Assembly (NCBI GenBank): GCA_038253135.1
Contig: JBBSHJ010000002.1
Span: forward strand, 9,217-73,216
Origin: Mycobacteriales bacterium
GTDB lineage: Bacteria > Actinomycetota > Actinomycetes > Mycobacteriales > QHCD01
DNA: 64,000 nucleotides
Reading direction: 5' to 3'
Below the pieces are notes generated by a model. It did not search any database, was not told the DNA's origin, and was given only the letters and a program-made list of their open reading frames with translations. This document shows positions 2,490 through 64,000 of this stretch, piece after piece (within the stretch, counting starts at the first letter, position 1; each line of letters begins with the position of its first letter). A program made the translations under genes and the position numbers.

Positions 2490-3194
2490 ATGTTCGGTGC
2501 GCTGCTCGACCTGGTCCTTCCCGCGGCCTGCGTCGGATGCGGCGCCGAGGGCACGCTGCTGTGCCGCGGCTGCGAGCGCACGGTCGGCACCGCCCGCCGG
2601 CACAGCCCCGACCCGGCGCCGCCCGGGTTGCCGGAGACCTGGACGGCAGGGCGGTATTCTGGCGCGTTGCGGGCGTTGCTGCTCGGTTACAAGGAGCGGG
2701 ACCGCCGCGATCTGGCGCCGGTGATCGGGTGCCTGCTGGCGCGAGCCACGCGCGCCGCGGTCATGTCGGTCGGCGACCCCGACCGGGCGCCGCTGGTGCT
2801 GGTGCCGATCCCGTCGCGGCGCGCGGTCGCCCGCCAGCGCGGCGGGGACCATGTGCGCCGCCTGCTGGTCGCGGCCATCCGGGCCGATCCGCCGCTGGCT
2901 GCCTGCCCGTTGATTCCGGCGCTGCGGGTCGTCGGCCGCCCGGTCGACGCGGTCGGACTGGACACGGCGCACCGGTGGCAGGCGCGGGCCCGGGTCTTCG
3001 CGCCGCGGGCTGGCTGCCTGCGGCTCGTCCAGGGCCGCGACGTCGTACTCGTCGACGACCTCATCACGACCGGCGCCACCCTCGTCGACGCCGCCCGGGC
3101 GCTTGCCGAGGCCGGCGCCCGGCCGGCCGCGGCGGTGACCCTCGCGGCCACGGCGCGCCGGCGACCCGCGCGCCCGCTCGGCGACCGAGCGTGA
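2490..3194 (+). CDS. ComF family protein (phosphoribosyltransferase domain)
   Basis: ATG 2490 inside ORF 2289..3194. N-terminal Cys pairs (CVGCGAEGTLLCRGC) and PRTase motif VVLVDDLITTGATL. Conserved position between lpqB and hpf. Confidence 0.8.
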   Translation: MFGALLDLVLPAACVGCGAEGTLLCRGCERTVGTARRHSPDPAPPGLPETWTAGRYSGALRALLLGYKERDRRDLAPVIGCLLARATRAAVMSVGDPDRAPLVLVPIPSRRAVARQRGGDHVRRLLVAAIRADPPLAACPLIPALRVVGRPVDAVGLDTAHRWQARARVFAPRAGCLRLVQGRDVVLVDDLITTGATLVDAARALAEAGARPAAAVTLAATARRRPARPLGDRA

Positions 3195-3350
3195 TTGCCG
3201 CCGGCCGGGTCTACCGTCGCCACGCCGGTCGGCGCTACCGTCGATTATTCATCCGCCGTCTGTCAATCTCGCCCGAGAGAATCTCGCCCAGAGAGAGGAG
3301 GACCGACCGAGACGGAGCGCAGGGCACAGCACTCAACCCGAGGAGGATCC

Positions 3351-4022
3351 GTGGACGTTGTCGTACGAGGCCGGAATGTTGAGGTCCCCGATCACTACCG
3401 CCAACTGGTGACCGAGAAGCTCACACGGATAGAACGGTTCGACGGCAAGCTGATCCGGATCGACGTCGAGTTGCATCACGAGAAGAATCCCCGCCAGGTC
3501 GATGAGTGCCAGCACGTCGAGATCACGGCGGTTTCGCGCGGCCCGGTCGTGCGGTCCGAAGCGCGGGCCGGCGATTTCTACGCCGCGTTGGACACCGCTG
3601 TCGGCAAGCTCGAGCGGCGGATGGCCAAGGCCGCCGACCGCCGCCGGGTCCACCACGGCAGGCATCGGCCGACCCGCGTCGCCGACGCGGCCGGCCGGAT
3701 CGACGCGGCACCGGCGGAAGCCTTCGGCCAGCCCGGCGACATCGCCACGGTCGCCGAGGCTGGCGATGACGCTCTCTACGACGCGCCGCCCACCGATGAG
3801 CCGGGCCGGATCGTGCGCCGCAAGCGACACGTCGGCACGCCGATGACGAGCGACCAGGCGCTGCACGAGATGGAGCTCGTCGGGCACGACTTCTACCTGT
3901 TCGCCGACGCGGAGACCGGGCTGCCGAGCGTCGTCTACCGCCGCAAGGGCTTCGCCTACGGCGTCATCACGCTCGAGCCGCGGGCGAGCGCGGGCAACGG
4001 GACGACGCAAGCGGCCGGCTGA
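3351..4022 (+). CDS. hpf: ribosome hibernation promoting factor, long form
   Basis: GTG 3351 preceded by AGGAGG (3341-3346). N-terminal S30AE-like domain ([22 protein letters not shown]) and C-terminal domain ([39 protein letters not shown]). Confidence 0.9.
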
Positions 4023-4030
4023 GGCCACTG

Positions 4031-4060
4031 GAACCGGCGTCGGCGCGCCGCCGCCGGTTC
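4031..4060 (+). terminator. GC-rich hairpin after hpf (candidate terminator, no U-tract)
   Basis: GAACCGGCG (4031-4039) pairs with CGCCGGTTC (4052-4060). It starts 9 nt after the hpf stop. Confidence 0.35.
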
Positions 4061-4158
4061 GCAGCGCTGACGTCCCACCGGCCCGAACGCATACCATTGC
4101 CACAGACGCGGGCCAGCGATGCGCCTGCTGTGACAGACGCCGAAGGGGTAAGTCAGTA

Positions 4159-7068
<2,910 letters not shown>

Positions 7069-7074
7069 GCCCAC

Positions 7075-7247
7075 TCAGTCGATCTGGGGCCCGGGACGGC
7101 TTTCTCGGTCGCTGCGCGCCTCGCTCGTTCCTCGCTCGGGTGCTCGCTCCCTCGTCAGCCGATCTGGCGCCCTGGACGGCTTTCTCGGTCGCTGCGCGCC
7201 TCGCTCGTTCCTCGCTCGGGTGCTCGCTCCCTCGTCAGCCGATCTGG
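7075..7247. repeat. 80-bp tandem repeat, 2 full units (7075-7154, 7155-7234) plus 13 nt, filling the secA / Rv3235-like convergent spacer
   Basis: Direct alignment of the two units shows 3 mismatches. The third partial unit is the 3' end plus TGA of the minus-strand gene. Same family as 9604-9639 and 44291-44396. Confidence 0.9.
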
Positions 7248-18358: not shown

Positions 18359-18422
18359 CTGAGGTGGCCTTTGGCTGAGGTGGCCATTGACTGACGTGGC
18401 CGTTGACTGACGTGGCGATTGA
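18359..18422. promoter_or_regulatory. four tandem 16-bp direct repeats (CTGASGTGGCNNTTGR) in the paiB / mocR divergent spacer; candidate operator array
   Basis: Units at 18359-74, 18375-90, 18391-406 and 18407-22 read directly from the sequence. An AT-rich stretch follows at 18427-18455. Confidence 0.5.
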
Positions 18423-18445
18423 CGTGTTCGTTACAGTACAAAACA

Positions 18446-51043: not shown

Positions 51044-51200
51044 TGCGGGGCCGCGCCGGTCCCGTCAAAGTCTCGATGGAAACCGTCTGCGCCCGCACCG
51101 CCCACCCAGCCGGTGACCGCGGTGCCGAAATGCGCGAGACCGGCCGGATCCTTGGTGTCCAGCGCGACCAGGGCGAAGCGAGCGATTCCCCTCAGCGACC

Positions 51201-51268
51201 TCCGAAACTCCTGGCACTCCGAAACTCCTGGCACTCCGAATCTCCTGGCACTCCGAATCTCCTGGCAC
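51201..51268. repeat. 17-bp tandem repeat x4 (TCCGAAWCTCCTGGCAC)
   Basis: Units at 51201-17, 51218-34, 51235-51 and 51252-68. The first two carry AAA and the last two AAT. Lies in a convergent spacer. Confidence 0.9.
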
Positions 51269-51289
51269 CTCCGAGCCCGCGGCCCTGAG

Positions 51290-59517: not shown

Positions 59518-60459
59518 TCAGGCTTGGTCTTCCCGCACCACGTCGCGCGGGTCCTTGTCGTCGCGTACGCCGCGGAAGGTCGGGTGCCGCAACCGGTGGG
59601 TCGGCGTCCACTCGACGTACTGCACATCCACGACCACAGCCGGCGCGCACCACTGCACGTTGGCCAGCTCGGCTCGAGTCATCTCCCCGGAGAACGGGCA
59701 AACCTCCTGCTCCAGGGGACCAACCAGCCGTTGTAGCCGGCCCAGCATCGCGTCGGTAAATCCCGTCCCGACCTGCCCGGCGTACCGCAGCGCCCCGTCC
59801 CCGCCGTGGTAGCCGATCGACAACGACCCGATCCGGCCGGTGCGCCCGCCCCCGCCGCGCTCGTAGCCGCCGACCACGAACGCCTGCCGTCGGGTGAGGC
59901 GGGACTTCACCCACTCCGGGCTCCGCACACCCGGCCGGTATCCCGACGTCAACCGCTTGGCGACGACACCCTCCAGGCCCTGCGCCTTGCTGGCGCCCAT
60001 CGTCGCGGGCCCGTCGTCGAGACTCGGTGGCACGGCCCACGACGGGCCGTCCAGGCCCAGGCGCTCGAGCGTCCTGCGCCGCTCGGTGTACGGCCGCTTG
60101 GTGAGATCGACGCCGTACAGCCGGACGACGTCGAAGATCAGGTAGGTCACGGGCGTCCCGGCGGCGAGCCGGCGCGCCTTCTCGGCGCTGCGGCAGTGCA
60201 TCCGGGGCTGCAGCGCGGCGAAGCTCGGCCGGCCGTCGGCGAAGGCCACGATCTCGCCGTCGAGCAGCGCGTCGGGACACGCGTCGGCGAGCCCCCAGAG
60301 TTCGGGGTACGCCGCGGTGATCGGCCGCTCCGTGCGGCTGGTCATCTGCATCCCGTCGGTGGTGAGATCGGCCACCGCGCGCACGCCGTCCCATTTGAAC
60401 TCGAAGGCCCAGCCGTCCCCGGTCGGCAGCGTGCCGGCGGTGGCGAGCATCGGCTTCAC
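59518..60459 (-). CDS. ligD: ATP-dependent DNA ligase (LigD ligase domain protein)
   Basis: MKPMLAT..WAFEFKWDGVRA adenylation motif I (KxDG). Confidence 0.9.
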   Translation of the reverse strand: MKPMLATAGTLPTGDGWAFEFKWDGVRAVADLTTDGMQMTSRTERPITAAYPELWGLADACPDALLDGEIVAFADGRPSFAALQPRMHCRSAEKARRLAAGTPVTYLIFDVVRLYGVDLTKRPYTERRRTLERLGLDGPSWAVPPSLDDGPATMGASKAQGLEGVVAKRLTSGYRPGVRSPEWVKSRLTRRQAFVVGGYERGGGGRTGRIGSLSIGYHGGDGALRYAGQVGTGFTDAMLGRLQRLVGPLEQEVCPFSGEMTRAELANVQWCAPAVVVDVQYVEWTPTHRLRHPTFRGVRDDKDPRDVVREDQA

Positions 60460-60555
60460 ACGCCCATCCTGCCCATGACCGGCCGGTCAAGGCACCCAGG
60501 TATCGGACTAACAGACCGGCGGGACAAAATCCGGTGCGGATGGGACGCTTGGGCA

Positions 60556-61578
60556 ATGCGAGCCATTTGGAAGGGTGCGGTCTCGTTCGGCCTGGTCAGC
60601 ATCCCGGTGCGGCTGTACTCCGCCACGGAGGAGCGCGACGTCGCGTTTCACCAGGTGCACCGGGAAGACGCGGGCCGGATCCGATACAAGCGGGTCTGCT
60701 CGATCGATGGCGAGGAGGTGCCCTACGCGGACATCGCCAAGGGTTATGAGCTGCCGAGCGGGGACACTGTTGTCATCACGGACGACGACCTGGCCGACCT
60801 GCCGCTGTCGACGAGCCGCGAGGTCGATGTGCTCGCGTTCGTGCCGCTGGAGCAGGTGGACCCGATCTATTTCGCCAAGAGTTACTACCTCGAGCCCGAC
60901 AACAACGCGGCCAAGCCCTATGTCCTGCTGCGGGATGCGCTCGAGCAGTCCGGCCGGGTCGCGCTGGTCAAGGTTGCGTTGCGCCAACGCGAGGCGCTGG
61001 CCACCCTTCGGACCCGCGACGGCGTCCTCGTGCTCGAGACGATGGTGTGGCCGGACGAGGTCCGTGCTCCGGAGTTCGGCTTCCTCGACGAGGACGTGAC
61101 GGTCCGCCCGGCCGAGCTCTCGATGGCCGAGTCGCTGATCGAGAGCATGACCGGCGACTTCGCGCCCGAGGATTACAAGGACGACTACCGCGAGGCGCTG
61201 CAGGCGGTCATCGATGCCAAGGTCGAGGGCCGTGAGGTGGTCGCCGCCGAGGAGGCGGAGGAGACCGGTGCGGGTGACGTCGTCGACCTGATGGCCGCTC
61301 TGCGGCGCAGTGTCAACGACGCGAAGCGGCGCCGGGGCGAGGCCGTCGACGACCAGGACAACACCGACGAGGACGACGCCGCAGGCGCACCGGCCGCCAA
61401 GCGGTCCTCGCCTGGCGCCCGGAAGGCGCCGGCGAAGAAGACCGCGAAGAAGGCGGCCAAGAAGCCGCCGGCGAAGAAGGCCGCCCAGGACAAGAATCCG
61501 GCCGCCAAACAGGCTGCGGCCAAGCGGGCAACTCCGCGCAAACGTTCGGCCGCCAAGGCCGAACGCAAGAGCGCCTGA
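60556..61578 (+). CDS. ku: Ku protein with lysine/alanine-rich C-terminal tail
   Basis: ATG 60556. MRAIWKGAVSFGLVSIPVRLYSAT. C-terminal AKKTAKKAAKKPPAKKAA tail. Confidence 0.95.
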   Translation: MRAIWKGAVSFGLVSIPVRLYSATEERDVAFHQVHREDAGRIRYKRVCSIDGEEVPYADIAKGYELPSGDTVVITDDDLADLPLSTSREVDVLAFVPLEQVDPIYFAKSYYLEPDNNAAKPYVLLRDALEQSGRVALVKVALRQREALATLRTRDGVLVLETMVWPDEVRAPEFGFLDEDVTVRPAELSMAESLIESMTGDFAPEDYKDDYREALQAVIDAKVEGREVVAAEEAEETGAGDVVDLMAALRRSVNDAKRRRGEAVDDQDNTDEDDAAGAPAAKRSSPGARKAPAKKTAKKAAKKPPAKKAAQDKNPAAKQAAAKRATPRKRSAAKAERKSA

Positions 61579-61612: not shown

Positions 61613-62677
61613 ATGCGGTCGGTTCCCATGGCGCAGCGCGGACGTGGCGCGGCGGTGCGGTCGGCATTCGGCGACCGGATGCGCGCCGCCGGACTGCGGC
61701 CGCCACCCGGTCCGGTCCGTGTCGCCGCGCTGTCCGACGGTGAGCTGCCCGACGTCGCGGACGACCAGCCGCTGTGGCCGCTGCGGCACATGACGATCGA
61801 CGGAGCGAAGGTCGGCTGCCGGGTCACGCCCGGACCGGCTGGTGCCGATCCCGCGGTCTACGTCCCAGGGCTCGGCGGTACGTCGAGCAACTGGACCGAT
61901 GTCGCGGCCCTGCTGCAGCGGGAGGTCGCGGGCGTCTCGGTCGATCCGGCCGGGTTCGGCGAATCGGATCCGCCGCTGGACGGCAACTACGCGCCGCCTG
62001 CCCACGCGCACCGCCTCGCGCGGTTCATCGAGCAGCAGTTCGGTGGCCGGCCGGTGCACCTTTTCGGCAACTCCCTCGGCGGCGTCGTCACGCTGCTGGC
62101 CGCCGTGCGGCGTCCCGATCTGGTCCGGAGCCTGACGCTGGTCTCGCCGGCGATGCCCGACCTGCGCCCGCATGGCCGCGAGCGGATGATGCTGGTCGCG
62201 ACCGTCGTGCCGGGCGTGCTCACGGTGGCCGAGCGCCGCGGCGGGCTGAGCGCCGAACAGCATGTCCGGATGGTCGTGGACACCGTCTTCGGCGACGCGT
62301 CCGTGGTCAACCCTGACCGGTTCGCCGCCGCGGTCGCCGAGGCCGAACGGCACGCCGGGCAACCGTGGGCGAGCGCCGCGCTGCGCTTGTCGCTGCGCGG
62401 GCTCATCGCGTCGTACGTCGGCACCGGCCGGCGATCGCTGTGGAACCTCGCCCGCCAGGTGCGGGTGCCGTCGCTGGTCGTCTGGGGTGACCGTGACCGG
62501 CTGGTCGACGTGACACTGGCGCATCGCACCGCGCGGGCGCTGCCCGACTCGCGCTTGCTGGTCCTGCCCGGCGTCGGGCACGTCGCGCACATGGAGACGC
62601 CGCGGCTCGTCGCCCGGGCGTTCTGCGGCCTGCTCGAGGAGACCCATCGCCGTGATCTCGCCATCGGCCTGCGCTGA
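61613..62677 (+). CDS. alpha/beta hydrolase
   Basis: ATG 61613. Nucleophile elbow GNSLGG. C-terminal GVGHVAHME. Confidence 0.85.
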   Translation: MRSVPMAQRGRGAAVRSAFGDRMRAAGLRPPPGPVRVAALSDGELPDVADDQPLWPLRHMTIDGAKVGCRVTPGPAGADPAVYVPGLGGTSSNWTDVAALLQREVAGVSVDPAGFGESDPPLDGNYAPPAHAHRLARFIEQQFGGRPVHLFGNSLGGVVTLLAAVRRPDLVRSLTLVSPAMPDLRPHGRERMMLVATVVPGVLTVAERRGGLSAEQHVRMVVDTVFGDASVVNPDRFAAAVAEAERHAGQPWASAALRLSLRGLIASYVGTGRRSLWNLARQVRVPSLVVWGDRDRLVDVTLAHRTARALPDSRLLVLPGVGHVAHMETPRLVARAFCGLLEETHRRDLAIGLR

Positions 62678-62688
62678 GCCCGCGGACG

Positions 62689-62710
62689 GCCGGCGTCGTC
62701 AGACGCCGGC
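62689..62710. terminator. 9-bp perfect GC-rich stem with 4-nt loop between the convergent hydrolase gene and the ECF operon (candidate bidirectional terminator)
   Basis: GCCGGCGTC (62689-62697) pairs with GACGCCGGC (62702-62710), loop GTCA. The stop of the repeat ORF lies in the loop. Confidence 0.45.
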
Positions 62711-62836
62711 GGTGCTCATTGCCGCCTCCGCGGAAACGAGTGCGTCGGCGGTGCTCATTGCCGCCTCCGCGGAAAGGAGTGCGTCGGCGGTGCTCATTGC
62801 CGCCTCCGCGGAAAGGAGTGCGTCGGCGGTGCTCAC
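62699..62836 (-). repeat. 39-bp tandem repeat, 3 full units plus a 21-nt truncated unit, each with SD + ATG + 13 codons (possible small repeat-peptide ORF)
   Basis: Minus strand reads VSTADALLSAEAA / MSTADALLSAEAA / MSTADALVSAEAA / MSTAGV stop. GGAGG lies 5 nt before each ATG. The first GTG overlaps the upstream stop (GTGA). Confidence 0.9.
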
Positions 62837-63042
62837 GCGGCCACGAACCGTTGCCACGACATGACCCGGGTGGACTCGGTGACCAGCCGCCCGGTGGCCG
62901 CGGTGTGCGCCCGCCACCAACTCGAGGGCAGCTGGTCACCGTCGCTGCTCGTGATCGTGGCGAGGATCGCGACGGCGGCACTGTCGGACAGCCGCTGCGC
63001 CCGGCCCCATTCCGCGAGGAGTGCATCAAGCTCGGGCATCAT
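62833..63042 (-). CDS. small hypothetical protein following the ECF sigma gene (possible unconventional anti-sigma partner)
   Basis: ATG 63042/63039 after GGAGGA. The start overlaps the sigma gene end by about 17 nt. No TM helix or HxxxCxxC motif seen. Confidence 0.45.
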   Translation of the reverse strand: MMPELDALLAEWGRAQRLSDSAAVAILATITSSDGDQLPSSWWRAHTAATGRLVTESTRVMSWQRFVAA

Positions 63043-63589
63043 CAAAATCCTCCGCCGTTCCGTCATCGATGTGCAAGGCCGTGCTCAGCGTGCGCCTGGC
63101 CATCGAGAGCCGGTACCGCACGGTGCCGGCCGGTATCTCGAGCGCCTGGCCGATCTCCGCGCTGGTCAGCCCGCTCACGGCGCTCATGCCCACCACGACA
63201 CGCTGCTCCTGCGGCAGCGCGTCGATCGCCCGGCCGAGCGTGGCCACGGTGGCGCGCCGGGCCGCGTCATCGGCCGCGGACTCGGTGTGCGGGGCCGCCG
63301 TCGCGGCGACCGCCCGCAGTTGCGTCGCGGTCGCCGCCCGGGTCGCCCGGCTCCGGTAGGCATCGGTGCTCAGGTTGCGCGCGACGGCGCAGAGCCAGGC
63401 CCGCTGCGCACCGTCGTCCAGCCCGGCGACGTGGTCGATGTTCCGCCAGGCGCGCAGGAAGACCTCCTGCATCAGCTCGTCCGCGGCCCCGTCGTCGCGG
63501 CGCCGGGCGCGGAAGAAGGCCCGCACGCCGTGCCGGTGGGCGTCGTACACCGCGGTGAACCGGGCGGTGCGGGCGTCAGCCGGCCGCAT
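63026..63589 (-). CDS. ECF-type RNA polymerase sigma-70 family factor
   Basis: ATG 63589. Region 2 ELMQEVFLRAWRNIDH. Region 4 LPQEQRVVVGMSAVSGLTSAEIGQALEIPAGTVRYRLSMARRTL. Confidence 0.85.
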   Translation of the reverse strand: MRPADARTARFTAVYDAHRHGVRAFFRARRRDDGAADELMQEVFLRAWRNIDHVAGLDDGAQRAWLCAVARNLSTDAYRSRATRAATATQLRAVAATAAPHTESAADDAARRATVATLGRAIDALPQEQRVVVGMSAVSGLTSAEIGQALEIPAGTVRYRLSMARRTLSTALHIDDGTAEDFDDARA

Positions 63590-64000
63590 CCTCGGCCGCA
63601 CTGATCCGGCCGCGGTTCGTGGTGGCGAGCACCTGGACCACGGGTACGAGCGCGCGGGGCGCAATGATCTGGCCGCTCAGCGCGATCGAAGCCACCTTGG
63701 CCCGGAGAAGGTCGGTGGTGACGTCCTCGCCGATGCTCAGCTCACCGGTCACGATCAGGCTGACCGGCGCGTCGAGCAGATCGAGGAAGGCCGCCCCGTA
63801 GGTCTCGGTGCCGGTGACGAGCCGCGGGTGGTCACCGACGTACCAGATGATCTCCCCGGCGACCGTCATGACCGGCTCGAGCAGGTGCCTCGCGGCCGCC
63901 GGGGCGATCATCATGCCGGCGACGATGATGCGGGCGAAGCCGACGCTGGTCGGCAACCCGTCGACAACGGCCTGGCCGGCGATAAGGAGAATGTCAGCGG
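63576..64000 (-). CDS. hypothetical protein, C-terminal part (5' end outside window)
   Basis: The reading frame stays open to nt 64000. The stop overlaps the sigma gene start by 14 nt. No motif recognised. Confidence 0.4.
   Translation of the reverse strand, partial: ADILLIAGQAVVDGLPTSVGFARIIVAGMMIAPAAARHLLEPVMTVAGEIIWYVGDHPRLVTGTETYGAAFLDLLDAPVSLIVTGELSIGEDVTTDLLRAKVASIALSGQIIAPRALVPVVQVLATTNRGRISAAEDAAG

Follow-up and report, generated by a model that had tools for sequence, protein, structure and literature searches.

The subject of this study is a 39-nt tandem array in a 64,000-nt stretch of the genome of a Mycobacteriales bacterium (GenBank assembly GCA_038253135.1, contig JBBSHJ010000002.1, positions 9,217 to 73,216), which is referred to below as the window. 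The array lies on the minus strand at 62699-62836, directly behind the last gene of an operon for an extracytoplasmic function (ECF) sigma factor. It belongs to a family of 38/39-nt repeats that is dispersed among actinobacteria and tied to the points at which the stop codon of one gene overlaps the start codon of the next.

The array and its operon

The operon consists of four minus-strand genes: one of 74 aa, one of 313 aa, the ECF-type sigma factor gene and an open reading frame (ORF) of 69 aa. The sigma factor (63026-63589, 187 aa, third in the operon) matches the Pfam families Sigma70_r2 (2.2e-10) and Sigma70_r4_2 (1.9e-12), and its exact product is present in the protein collection that we used for look-ups. 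The 69-aa ORF (62833-63042), which is called as a gene in public assemblies, begins in an overlap with the end of the sigma factor gene and stops in a TGA (62833-62835) that lies within the first GTGA of the array. Pfam has no match for it, and among 5.8 billion protein clusters our search returned a single homologue, in a sibling metagenome-assembled genome (MAG). Its orthology was reached via the sigma factor: the nearest non-sibling sigma factor (57% identity) lies in the same four-gene operon at locus L155, where a 65-aa ORF in the same position is 47% identical to the 69-aa ORF (E 9e-14). We therefore regard the 69-aa ORF as a real gene.

On the other side of the array lies a convergent alpha/beta-hydrolase gene (plus strand, 61613-62677; Pfam Abhydrolase_1, 4.5e-27), whose start we infer from a 354-aa gene call in the sibling MAG and whose end is 22 nt away from that of the array ORF. 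No gene follows on the minus strand 3' of the array: after the last ATG come six codons, a hairpin and the convergent hydrolase.

The array is made up of three 39-nt units and a 21-nt stub. On the minus strand, the unit reads GTG/ATG AGC ACC GCC GAC GCA CTC CTT(GTT) TCC GCG GAG GCG GCA. Unit 1 (62798-62836) starts with GTG, has the Shine-Dalgarno (SD) motif GGAGG at 62803-62807 and could form a hairpin at 62800-62829. Units 2 (62759-62797; potential hairpin at 62761-62790) and 3 (62720-62758; potential hairpin at 62722-62751) start with ATG, and unit 3 differs by a single substitution, CTT to GTT. The stub that follows the third unit (62699-62719, ATGAGCACCGCCGGCGTCTGA) is a truncated fourth unit, in which ATGAGCACCGCCG is followed by GCGTCTGA. 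The array frame translates as VSTADALLSAEAA/MSTADALLSAEAA/MSTADALVSAEAA/MSTAGV-stop and ends at 62699, and the six-codon MSTAGV stub occupies the place where other loci of the family have the start of the downstream gene. Every ATG of the array has GGAGG 5 nt upstream and is itself part of ATGA, and the first GTG overlaps the TGA of the 69-aa ORF (GCG TGA / GTG A). The first-pass annotation of this DNA had described the composition of the array, its frame, the SD spacing, the ATGA and GTGA overlaps, the single substitution and the end inside a hairpin, and all of these sequence statements were confirmed, as was the G+C content at third codon positions of the unit frame (10/13), which follows from the unit sequence.

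At its 3' end, the stub merges into a 9-bp GC hairpin between the convergent gene ends (GCCGGCGTC-TGAC-GACGCCGGC, 62689-62710), which is seen in the sequence and in the folds of both strands. This hairpin is a possible bidirectional terminator without a U tract; a consensus promoter and terminator scan of 62300-64000 called nothing, the hairpin included. The 221-nt region folds slightly better than its shuffles on either strand (z = -2.2 and -2.3).

Several searches define how far the unit extends within the window. Tandem Repeats Finder (TRF) reports 62707-62835 with a period of 39, 3.3 copies, 98% matches and a score of 251. A search that allowed three mismatches found the three full minus-strand units, where 100 shuffles led us to expect none, and no copy outside the array in the remainder of the 64 kb. 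Applied to all 64 kb without filters, a covariance model of the unit recovered the array units only (63.6, 62.1 and 44.4 bits), the runner-up reaching 18 bits. Against Rfam 15 in E-value mode, the best matches of 62500-63200 had E >1 and lay far below the gathering scores. The repeat ORFs of 45, 32 and 73 aa are absent from a collection of 15 billion proteins by exact look-up, and the only Pfam match of the 45-codon array ORF is weak (E 0.021).

The sibling MAG (GCA_051003115.1) is 99.7% identical to the window over 7 kb and also has 3.3 array copies, which its annotation records as a 45-aa hypothetical protein. Between the two arrays there is one substitution, GCG to GCT, which is synonymous in the unit frame and weakens one SD from GGAGG to TGAGG. 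Overall, 22 of 6975 aligned bases differ (L002), and 13 of these differences fall within 60 nt at 62916-62976, inside the 69-aa ORF, with no indels and with MAG changes mostly towards G or C ('ggtggggggcggg'). This cluster looks like a low-coverage assembly error beside the repeat, and it may also be a true hypervariable patch. An independent short-read assembly, Logan contig SRR24807095_318679 (L001/L003), stops 27 nt into unit 1, from which we conclude that the array breaks short-read assemblies.

The operon at L155 has no repeat. Its small ORF ends ...GCAGCC TGA GCGGGCTGTCGCGGGCGG TCA, with 18 nt to a convergent peptidase gene, and the nucleotide alignment with the window stops at 62951. 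The array was therefore gained in the lineage of the window or lost in that of L155. The same comparison disposes of two other accounts of the locus. A lost downstream gene was rejected because the L155 operon ends at the same point, and a frameshifted C-terminus of the 69-aa gene was rejected because the orthologue at L155 stops at that point too and has no repeat behind it. A CRISPR array was rejected as well, the array being without spacers.

A dispersed family of 38/39-nt units

We scanned one genome per species for the exact 20-mer TGAGCACCGCCGACGCACTC and obtained 31 loci. The 3' half of the unit (CGCGGAGGCGGC) and a start codon, neither of which was part of the search pattern, are present at about 20 of them as well; the other matches lie inside coding sequence and lack the 3' half, and we therefore attribute them to chance. 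The hosts are Pseudonocardia kunmingensis, P. endophytica, several Pseudonocardia and Amycolatopsis MAGs, Actinocatenispora (Micromonosporales), a Geodermatophilaceae MAG with the unit on three contigs and several Mycobacteriales-labelled MAGs, one of which has the unit on four contigs. With the taxonomic labels of the MAGs accepted as given, the host range covers four orders: Pseudonocardiales, Geodermatophilales, Micromonosporales and the Mycobacteriales-labelled MAGs. There is no Mycobacterium among the 31 genome loci, as far as an exact 20-mer, which would miss diverged copies, can tell. In two Micromonospora species with near-identical flanks (L005 and L034), the 20-mer forms an inverted repeat of its own (CCGACGCACTCGC...GCGAGTGCGTCGG) and is without the SD half of the unit; kinship with the family, an unrelated hairpin of the terminator kind and chance are all possible readings.

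A scan of metagenomes, in which only the stem arms were fixed (CCGCCGACGC N8-12 GCGGAGGCGG), yielded at least 120 loci. Among the matches listed, 86 have a gap of 10 nt, against 8-16 for each of the gaps of 8, 9, 11 and 12 nt, an excess that is partly a coding-frame effect (Ala-Asp-Ala ... Ala-Glu-Ala). Of the 69 listed loci with a 10-nt gap, 32 have the loop signature A[C/A/T][T/G], compared with 3 of the 51 with other gaps (Fisher p = 6e-7). Each of the two scans fixes part of the unit, so the conservation of those parts is a matter of ascertainment.

In consensus form the unit reads [A/G]TGAGCACCGCCGACGCACTC-N5-CGCGGAGGCGGCA. One subtype, ATGACCGCC, is common and has a spacer that is 3 nt longer, and more diverged subtypes occur at L070, L027, L022 and L162. 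The window array is 80-90% identical to loci in other genera over whole arrays. On one metagenomic contig (L070, Ga0075421_100015460, about 2715-5295), three arrays of two subfamilies, the canonical GTGACCGCC type and a diverged ATGATCGACGACGCGCTCTCCTCAGCGGAGGAGAAGGC type without the outer stem, lie within about 3 kb, and L036 and L119 have two arrays each; some genomes may thus be densely populated with arrays. The DNA strings of the family were not found in the full text of about 8 million papers, and concept searches of the literature for similar repeats in actinomycetes returned nothing relevant. The family is apparently undescribed.

The frame logic of the unit follows from its length. 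The canonical unit measures 38 nt, the usual period, and comprises a start and 12 codons, after which a TGA overlaps the next start as ATGA; the length is therefore of the form 3n-1. It opens with [A/G]TGA, so that the stop of the preceding gene overlaps the unit's own start, and it has GGAGG 5-8 nt before its end. In 39-nt arrays, the window's included, the length is 3n and the units fuse in frame. By our hand tally, 17 arrays have a period of 38 nt, 14 have one of 39 nt and a single array has one of 37 nt; periods of 36 or 40 nt did not occur. The 39-nt arrays show eight or more distinct junction sequences, and their fused ORFs of 26, 39, 40 or 42 codons end exactly on the downstream start. 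Three loci depart from the canonical length or frame and nevertheless preserve the relay from stop to start: a 9-nt loop is compensated by an extra upstream C at L091, the frame shifts in unit 1 and is restored in unit 2 at L106, and L139 uses another frame, with 12-codon ORFs in which TAG is directly followed by ATG.

The position of the arrays relative to genes is equally regular. Of the other genome loci, 18 have enough flanking sequence, and at all 18 the final mini-ORF ends in a stop that overlaps the start of a same-strand ORF of 68-738 codons; at most of these loci the start of the first unit overlaps the stop of a long upstream ORF. The flanking pairs (Pfam) include an NMT1-type binding protein and a permease, LutA-LutB, PanD/NadB-like, DUF3105-DUF305, OppB-OppC, a permease and an ATPase, and EfeO-EfeB. 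The genes that flank the arrays are ordinary operon partners. We also applied an automatic relay test, which steps from the stop of the upstream gene to a start that is at most a few nt away, then to the next stop, and so forth until it arrives at a long ORF. It was passed by 36 of 53 evaluable arrays, and on inspection at least four further arrays would deliver ribosomes into the downstream ORF. The exceptions include in-frame N- or C-terminal fusions (L057, L109, L131, L148, L075, L085, L041 and L119).

Filled and empty versions of one junction are found between efeO and efeB in Amycolatopsis. Three alleles are empty (L159, L160 and L161) and read ...AGGAGG(N5)TC GTGA C..., the stop of efeO overlapping the GTG of efeB. 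Two alleles (L156 and L157) have 2 units. The allele at L009 has 3 units in 39-nt steps, which begin directly after GTGA and end in ATGA before the same efeB codons. In A. ultiminotia (L162) there are 2 units of a different subfamily (39 + 38 nt), and efeB codons 2-3 are now element-like AGCACC. The insertions at efeO-efeB sit exactly on the overlap, which is regenerated on both sides. At the 3' boundary there is an incomplete unit, the length of which varies (4 nt at L009, 9 nt at L162 and 13 nt in the window). Relative to the L009 query, EfeB is 98% identical in L156 and L157, 87, 86 and 84% identical in the empty alleles and 83% identical in the filled L162. Filled and empty alleles thus interleave by EfeB identity, which points to either repeated gain or repeated precise loss at the junction.

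Two further pairs of loci bear on copy number and on sequence change within arrays. L043 (1 unit) and L075 (2 units) have near-identical flanks, by which they look orthologous. L022 and L027, with 2 units each, likewise look orthologous from their flanks; their loops are identical within an array and different between the two species, a pattern that points to concerted evolution.

What is conserved in the family is the nucleotide sequence together with its translatability, and not the peptide. Variation is free at the last codon and at the two that come after Leu, Leu itself is replaced by Arg, Phe or Ile in some members, and L009, L119 and L131 have no internal start codons. The Ala codon that is kept is GCA, which is a rare Ala codon at this G+C content. 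The conserved nucleotides are CCGCCGACGCACTC and CCGCGGAGGCGG, and about 30 nt are nearly invariant across the four orders, synonymous positions included. The 5-nt block is pyrimidine-rich, with 82% C or T in a hand count of the unfiltered genome set and 84% in the filtered set, where the family filter slightly inflates the figure. A recurrent hairpin is predicted in most units (CCGCC-GA-CGC / 10-nt loop / GCG-GA-GGCGG), the 3' arm of which contains the SD, and 46 of 53 distinct loops contain CUCC-like anti-SD strings.

The first-pass annotation had described the window unit as a self-contained module of SD, start and 13 codons, with stop/start overlap and a layout resembling that of the interspersed repetitive units of mycobacteria (MIRUs), and this description holds for the whole family. 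It had also proposed to look for copy numbers that change in unit steps among relatives, which is what efeO-efeB displays with 0, 2 or 3 units. Finally, it had named occurrence at many loci with no relation to gene ends as an observation that would speak against it; there are indeed many loci, but they are tightly related to gene ends.

Interpretation and rival explanations

We propose the following mechanism for the family. An element that inserts at an NTGA stop/start overlap of co-directional genes would regenerate the overlap on both of its sides. Ribosomes that end the upstream gene would be handed unit by unit to the downstream start by termination-reinitiation, and insertion or expansion would therefore leave the translation of the operon unbroken. 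Such a relay would build on known behavior, as gene pairs with an ATGA overlap are coupled in translation by termination-reinitiation (PMC6728339, PMC10666635). The SD would lie in the 3' arm of a GC hairpin, beside a pyrimidine-rich loop, and reinitiation would then depend on a translating ribosome that opens the structure. Copy number would change by slippage, in whole units.

In the window, the element would have landed on the GTGA at the stop codon of the 69-aa gene, which closes the ECF sigma operon. As no gene lies downstream of the array, there is nothing to couple, and the copy is likely a neutral terminal insertion that is probably inert. A transcript that reaches the array would have its 45-codon ORF translated, with the end of the ORF in the terminator hairpin, and the array may have a minor role in 3'-end stability.

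We assign a probability of about 70% to the overall reading that the array is a 3.3-copy instance of a dispersed 38/39-nt actinobacterial repeat, that this repeat is a translation-transparent cassette, and that the window copy is a neutral, lineage-specific terminal insertion. A number of observations weigh against it. The relay test was failed by 17 of the 53 arrays; apart from the in-frame fusions, the exceptions comprise arrays in 5'-leader positions (L029, L112, L124 and L136), a second orphan array with a hairpin after it (L059) and antisense copies (L132 and L145). Nor does covariation back the hairpin: with the stems fixed by the search patterns, one compensatory pair was seen, and the diverged subfamily at L070 is without the outer stem. 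As to mobility, gain and loss at efeO-efeB could both account for the interleaved alleles, blastn in 'distant' mode matched the array to none of the PLSDB plasmids or INPHARED phages, and no transposase or other mobilising function was identified, with no search aimed at insertion sequences having been made. Translation of the units is suggested by their design, and the probable neutrality of the window copy is argued from the missing downstream gene. Moreover, a neutral parasite alone does not explain near-identity of about 30 nt over four orders; something recognises the sequence.

One candidate for such recognition is a DNA-level site for protein binding or recombination, built on the TCCGCGGA palindrome and the CCGCC/GGCGG arms, in which case the start and stop features would simply be what survives selection inside operons. 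The extent of the near-invariant sequence exceeds what an SD and a start codon need, and the variable partial unit at the 3' boundary (4, 9 or 13 nt) suggests recombination rather than clean cut-and-paste. However, the element is nearly always co-oriented with its flanking genes, which a symmetric site would not need, and no partner protein was identified. As an account that stands by itself, we consider it improbable; it is compatible with the translation-transparent cassette, for which it could be the way of spreading.

Unlikely, too, is that the array acts as a module of the RNA 3' end, with the unit hairpins and the 9-bp hairpin blocking 3' exonucleases or aiding convergent termination in the manner of the REP elements (repetitive, extragenic and palindromic) of enterobacteria. 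Each unit can form a GC hairpin of 5+3 bp, the array abuts the 9-bp hairpin between convergent genes, the array at L059 is similarly terminal and followed by a hairpin, and the 221-nt region does fold slightly better than shuffles (z -2.2 and -2.3). Those z-scores are weak, though; there is no U tract, the consensus scan calls no terminator, the orthologous operon at L155 does without the array, and family-wide the element lies inside operons and not at their ends.

The remaining explanations include those that the first-pass annotation had put forward for the locus. A working spacer for translational coupling or tuning would be in keeping with the GTGA overlap with the 69-aa gene and with the SD/ATG spacing, intact in all units, but the gene map contradicts it: no same-strand gene follows the array, only the six codons, the hairpin and the convergent hydrolase after the last start. 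The sole array substitution of the sibling MAG, moreover, weakens an SD. For the window locus we therefore regard coupling as very unlikely, and a gene for a small protein or multi-core precursor peptide (45 aa, MSTADALLSAEAA repeats) under ECF sigma control is barely plausible. The open 45-codon frame with its SD-like sites, the call by a gene caller in the sibling MAG and the synonymous nature, in the unit frame, of the lone substitution between the two arrays are what such a gene would predict. Yet the exact sequence is absent from the 15-billion-protein collection, the Pfam match is weak (E 0.021), and the peptide is not conserved: its residues vary over the family, L139 is read in another frame, internal starts are lacking at L009, L119 and L131, and the conserved Ala codon is the rare GCA. 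The suggestion of a neutral minisatellite was right in part, in that the window copy is probably inert, and wrong in part, in that the repeat is dispersed and not locus-specific. A private minisatellite, born of local duplication of the gene end and terminator, would account for the single locus in the 64-kb window and for the blending of the last unit into the terminator hairpin; it is refuted by the presence of the same unit at dozens of unrelated loci in other genera, with 80-90% identity over arrays.

An extension of the translation-transparent cassette goes further and is tentative, in our view on the doubtful side. It would make the family an active 38-nt non-autonomous mobile element, aimed specifically at NTGA overlaps in four or more actinobacterial orders and built to go unnoticed when an operon is translated. 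The number of copies would act as a heritable rheostat for translation of the gene downstream, and the family would be a broader counterpart of the MIRUs and perhaps a relative of them.

Other repeats and genes of the window stand apart from the array. The strongest tandem repeat is located at 7075-7247 (80 bp x 2.2 copies, 96% matches, TRF score 325) and contains CTCG-rich sub-repeats; further arrays lie at 51200-51274 (17 bp x 4.4 copies of CTCCGAAACTCCTGGCA, 96% matches, score 127) and at 18359-18423 (16 bp x 4.1 copies of CTGACGTGGCCATTGA, score 88). Adjoining the hydrolase, at 59518-61578, is a pair of genes for non-homologous end joining, of which one encodes a LigD-type ligase of 313 aa on the minus strand and the other Ku on the plus strand. 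The Ku ORF has a Lys/Ala-rich end, which appears as 12-27-bp repeats at 61432-61485, and the order ligase, Ku, hydrolase is also present in the sibling MAG.

Taken by itself, the window copy carries little biological weight, and its interest lies in the family that it revealed. The family supplies natural variants (38 vs 39 nt, different frames, 0-3 copies at one junction) with which the needs of termination-reinitiation can be probed, and for high-GC hosts it provides a translational coupler that is compact and natural. For genomics, the arrays disrupt short-read assemblies and are labelled hypothetical proteins by gene callers, and they could serve as variable-number tandem repeat markers in Pseudonocardia and Amycolatopsis.

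Comparison with known systems

REP sequences and the mosaic elements that they form (REP/BIME) in enterobacteria and pseudomonads are GC-rich imperfect palindromes of about 35-40 nt, within a wider range of about 21-65 nt, that are extragenic, often clustered and able to sit at the 3' ends of genes. REPs occur in alternating orientation, have no logic of SD, start and stop, and are linked to RAYT transposases. The present family resembles them as an imperfect palindrome in extragenic DNA, with a hairpin of 5 bp, tandem GA and 3 bp predicted in most units, but its arrays are all head-to-tail, with a 38/39-nt period and a reading-frame logic. Miniature inverted-repeat transposable elements (MITEs), such as Correia/NEMIS, are small non-autonomous insertions, about 50-500 bp in size, that are bounded by terminal inverted repeats, duplicate their target and have a related autonomous insertion sequence. 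The CCGCC/GGCGG arms of the family and the TGA at both ends of the filled efeO-efeB sites recall this arrangement, with a 3' boundary that is partial and variable; in contrast to MITEs, the unit is far smaller (38/39 nt), is tandemly amplified and targets stop/start overlaps. As with the Rickettsia palindromic elements (RPEs), some copies are tolerated in frame within coding sequence (L075, L085, L119 and L131).

Among engineered systems, the couplers of bicistronic design (PMC12548453) are alike in having a short leader ORF that holds the SD of the next gene and whose stop overlaps the next start. Both would deliver a ribosome and unfold local structure. The coupler is an engineered part, whereas the family is natural, repeated and dispersed.

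The closest parallel is with the MIRUs (Supply et al. 1997), which the summaries in PMC3184786, PMC3914561 and PMC12548453 present as short, co-oriented intergenic units of operons with a small ORF. Their unit size is 46-101 bp, with classes of 77 bp, 53 bp and others (PMC3914561, PMC4213456). According to a 2025 review, MIRUs are apparently mobile and insert at start codons, and the ORF of the unit is coupled at -4 nt, so that expression is disturbed as little as possible (PMC12548453). The family shares with them the intergenic, often tandem position between co-directional operon genes in the same orientation, of which the window locus has the upstream gene only, and the small ORF whose start and stop overlap the flanking genes by 4 nt, which in the window applies to the 5' side only (GTGA). 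Copy-number polymorphism with filled and empty sites is common to both (efeO-efeB; L043/L075; and the window, filled, against L155, empty), as are filled and empty sites with a short duplicated sequence. By arithmetic on the cited sizes, 77 and 53 bp are of the form 3n-1, as is 38.

The differences lie in the unit, 38/39 nt as opposed to 46-101, in the in-frame 39-nt mode, which is common in the family, and in the hosts, which among the 31 loci of the exact 20-mer are not Mycobacterium. MIRUs have been seen as an oddity of mycobacteria, and the same review still names them as the one natural start-codon-inserting repeat that couples its own ORF to the host gene (PMC12548453); with a second family of MIRU logic in at least four orders, 'translation-transparent insertion' would be a general strategy. 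Compared by description and not by sequence, the family works like MIRU and is set apart from it by size and hosts.

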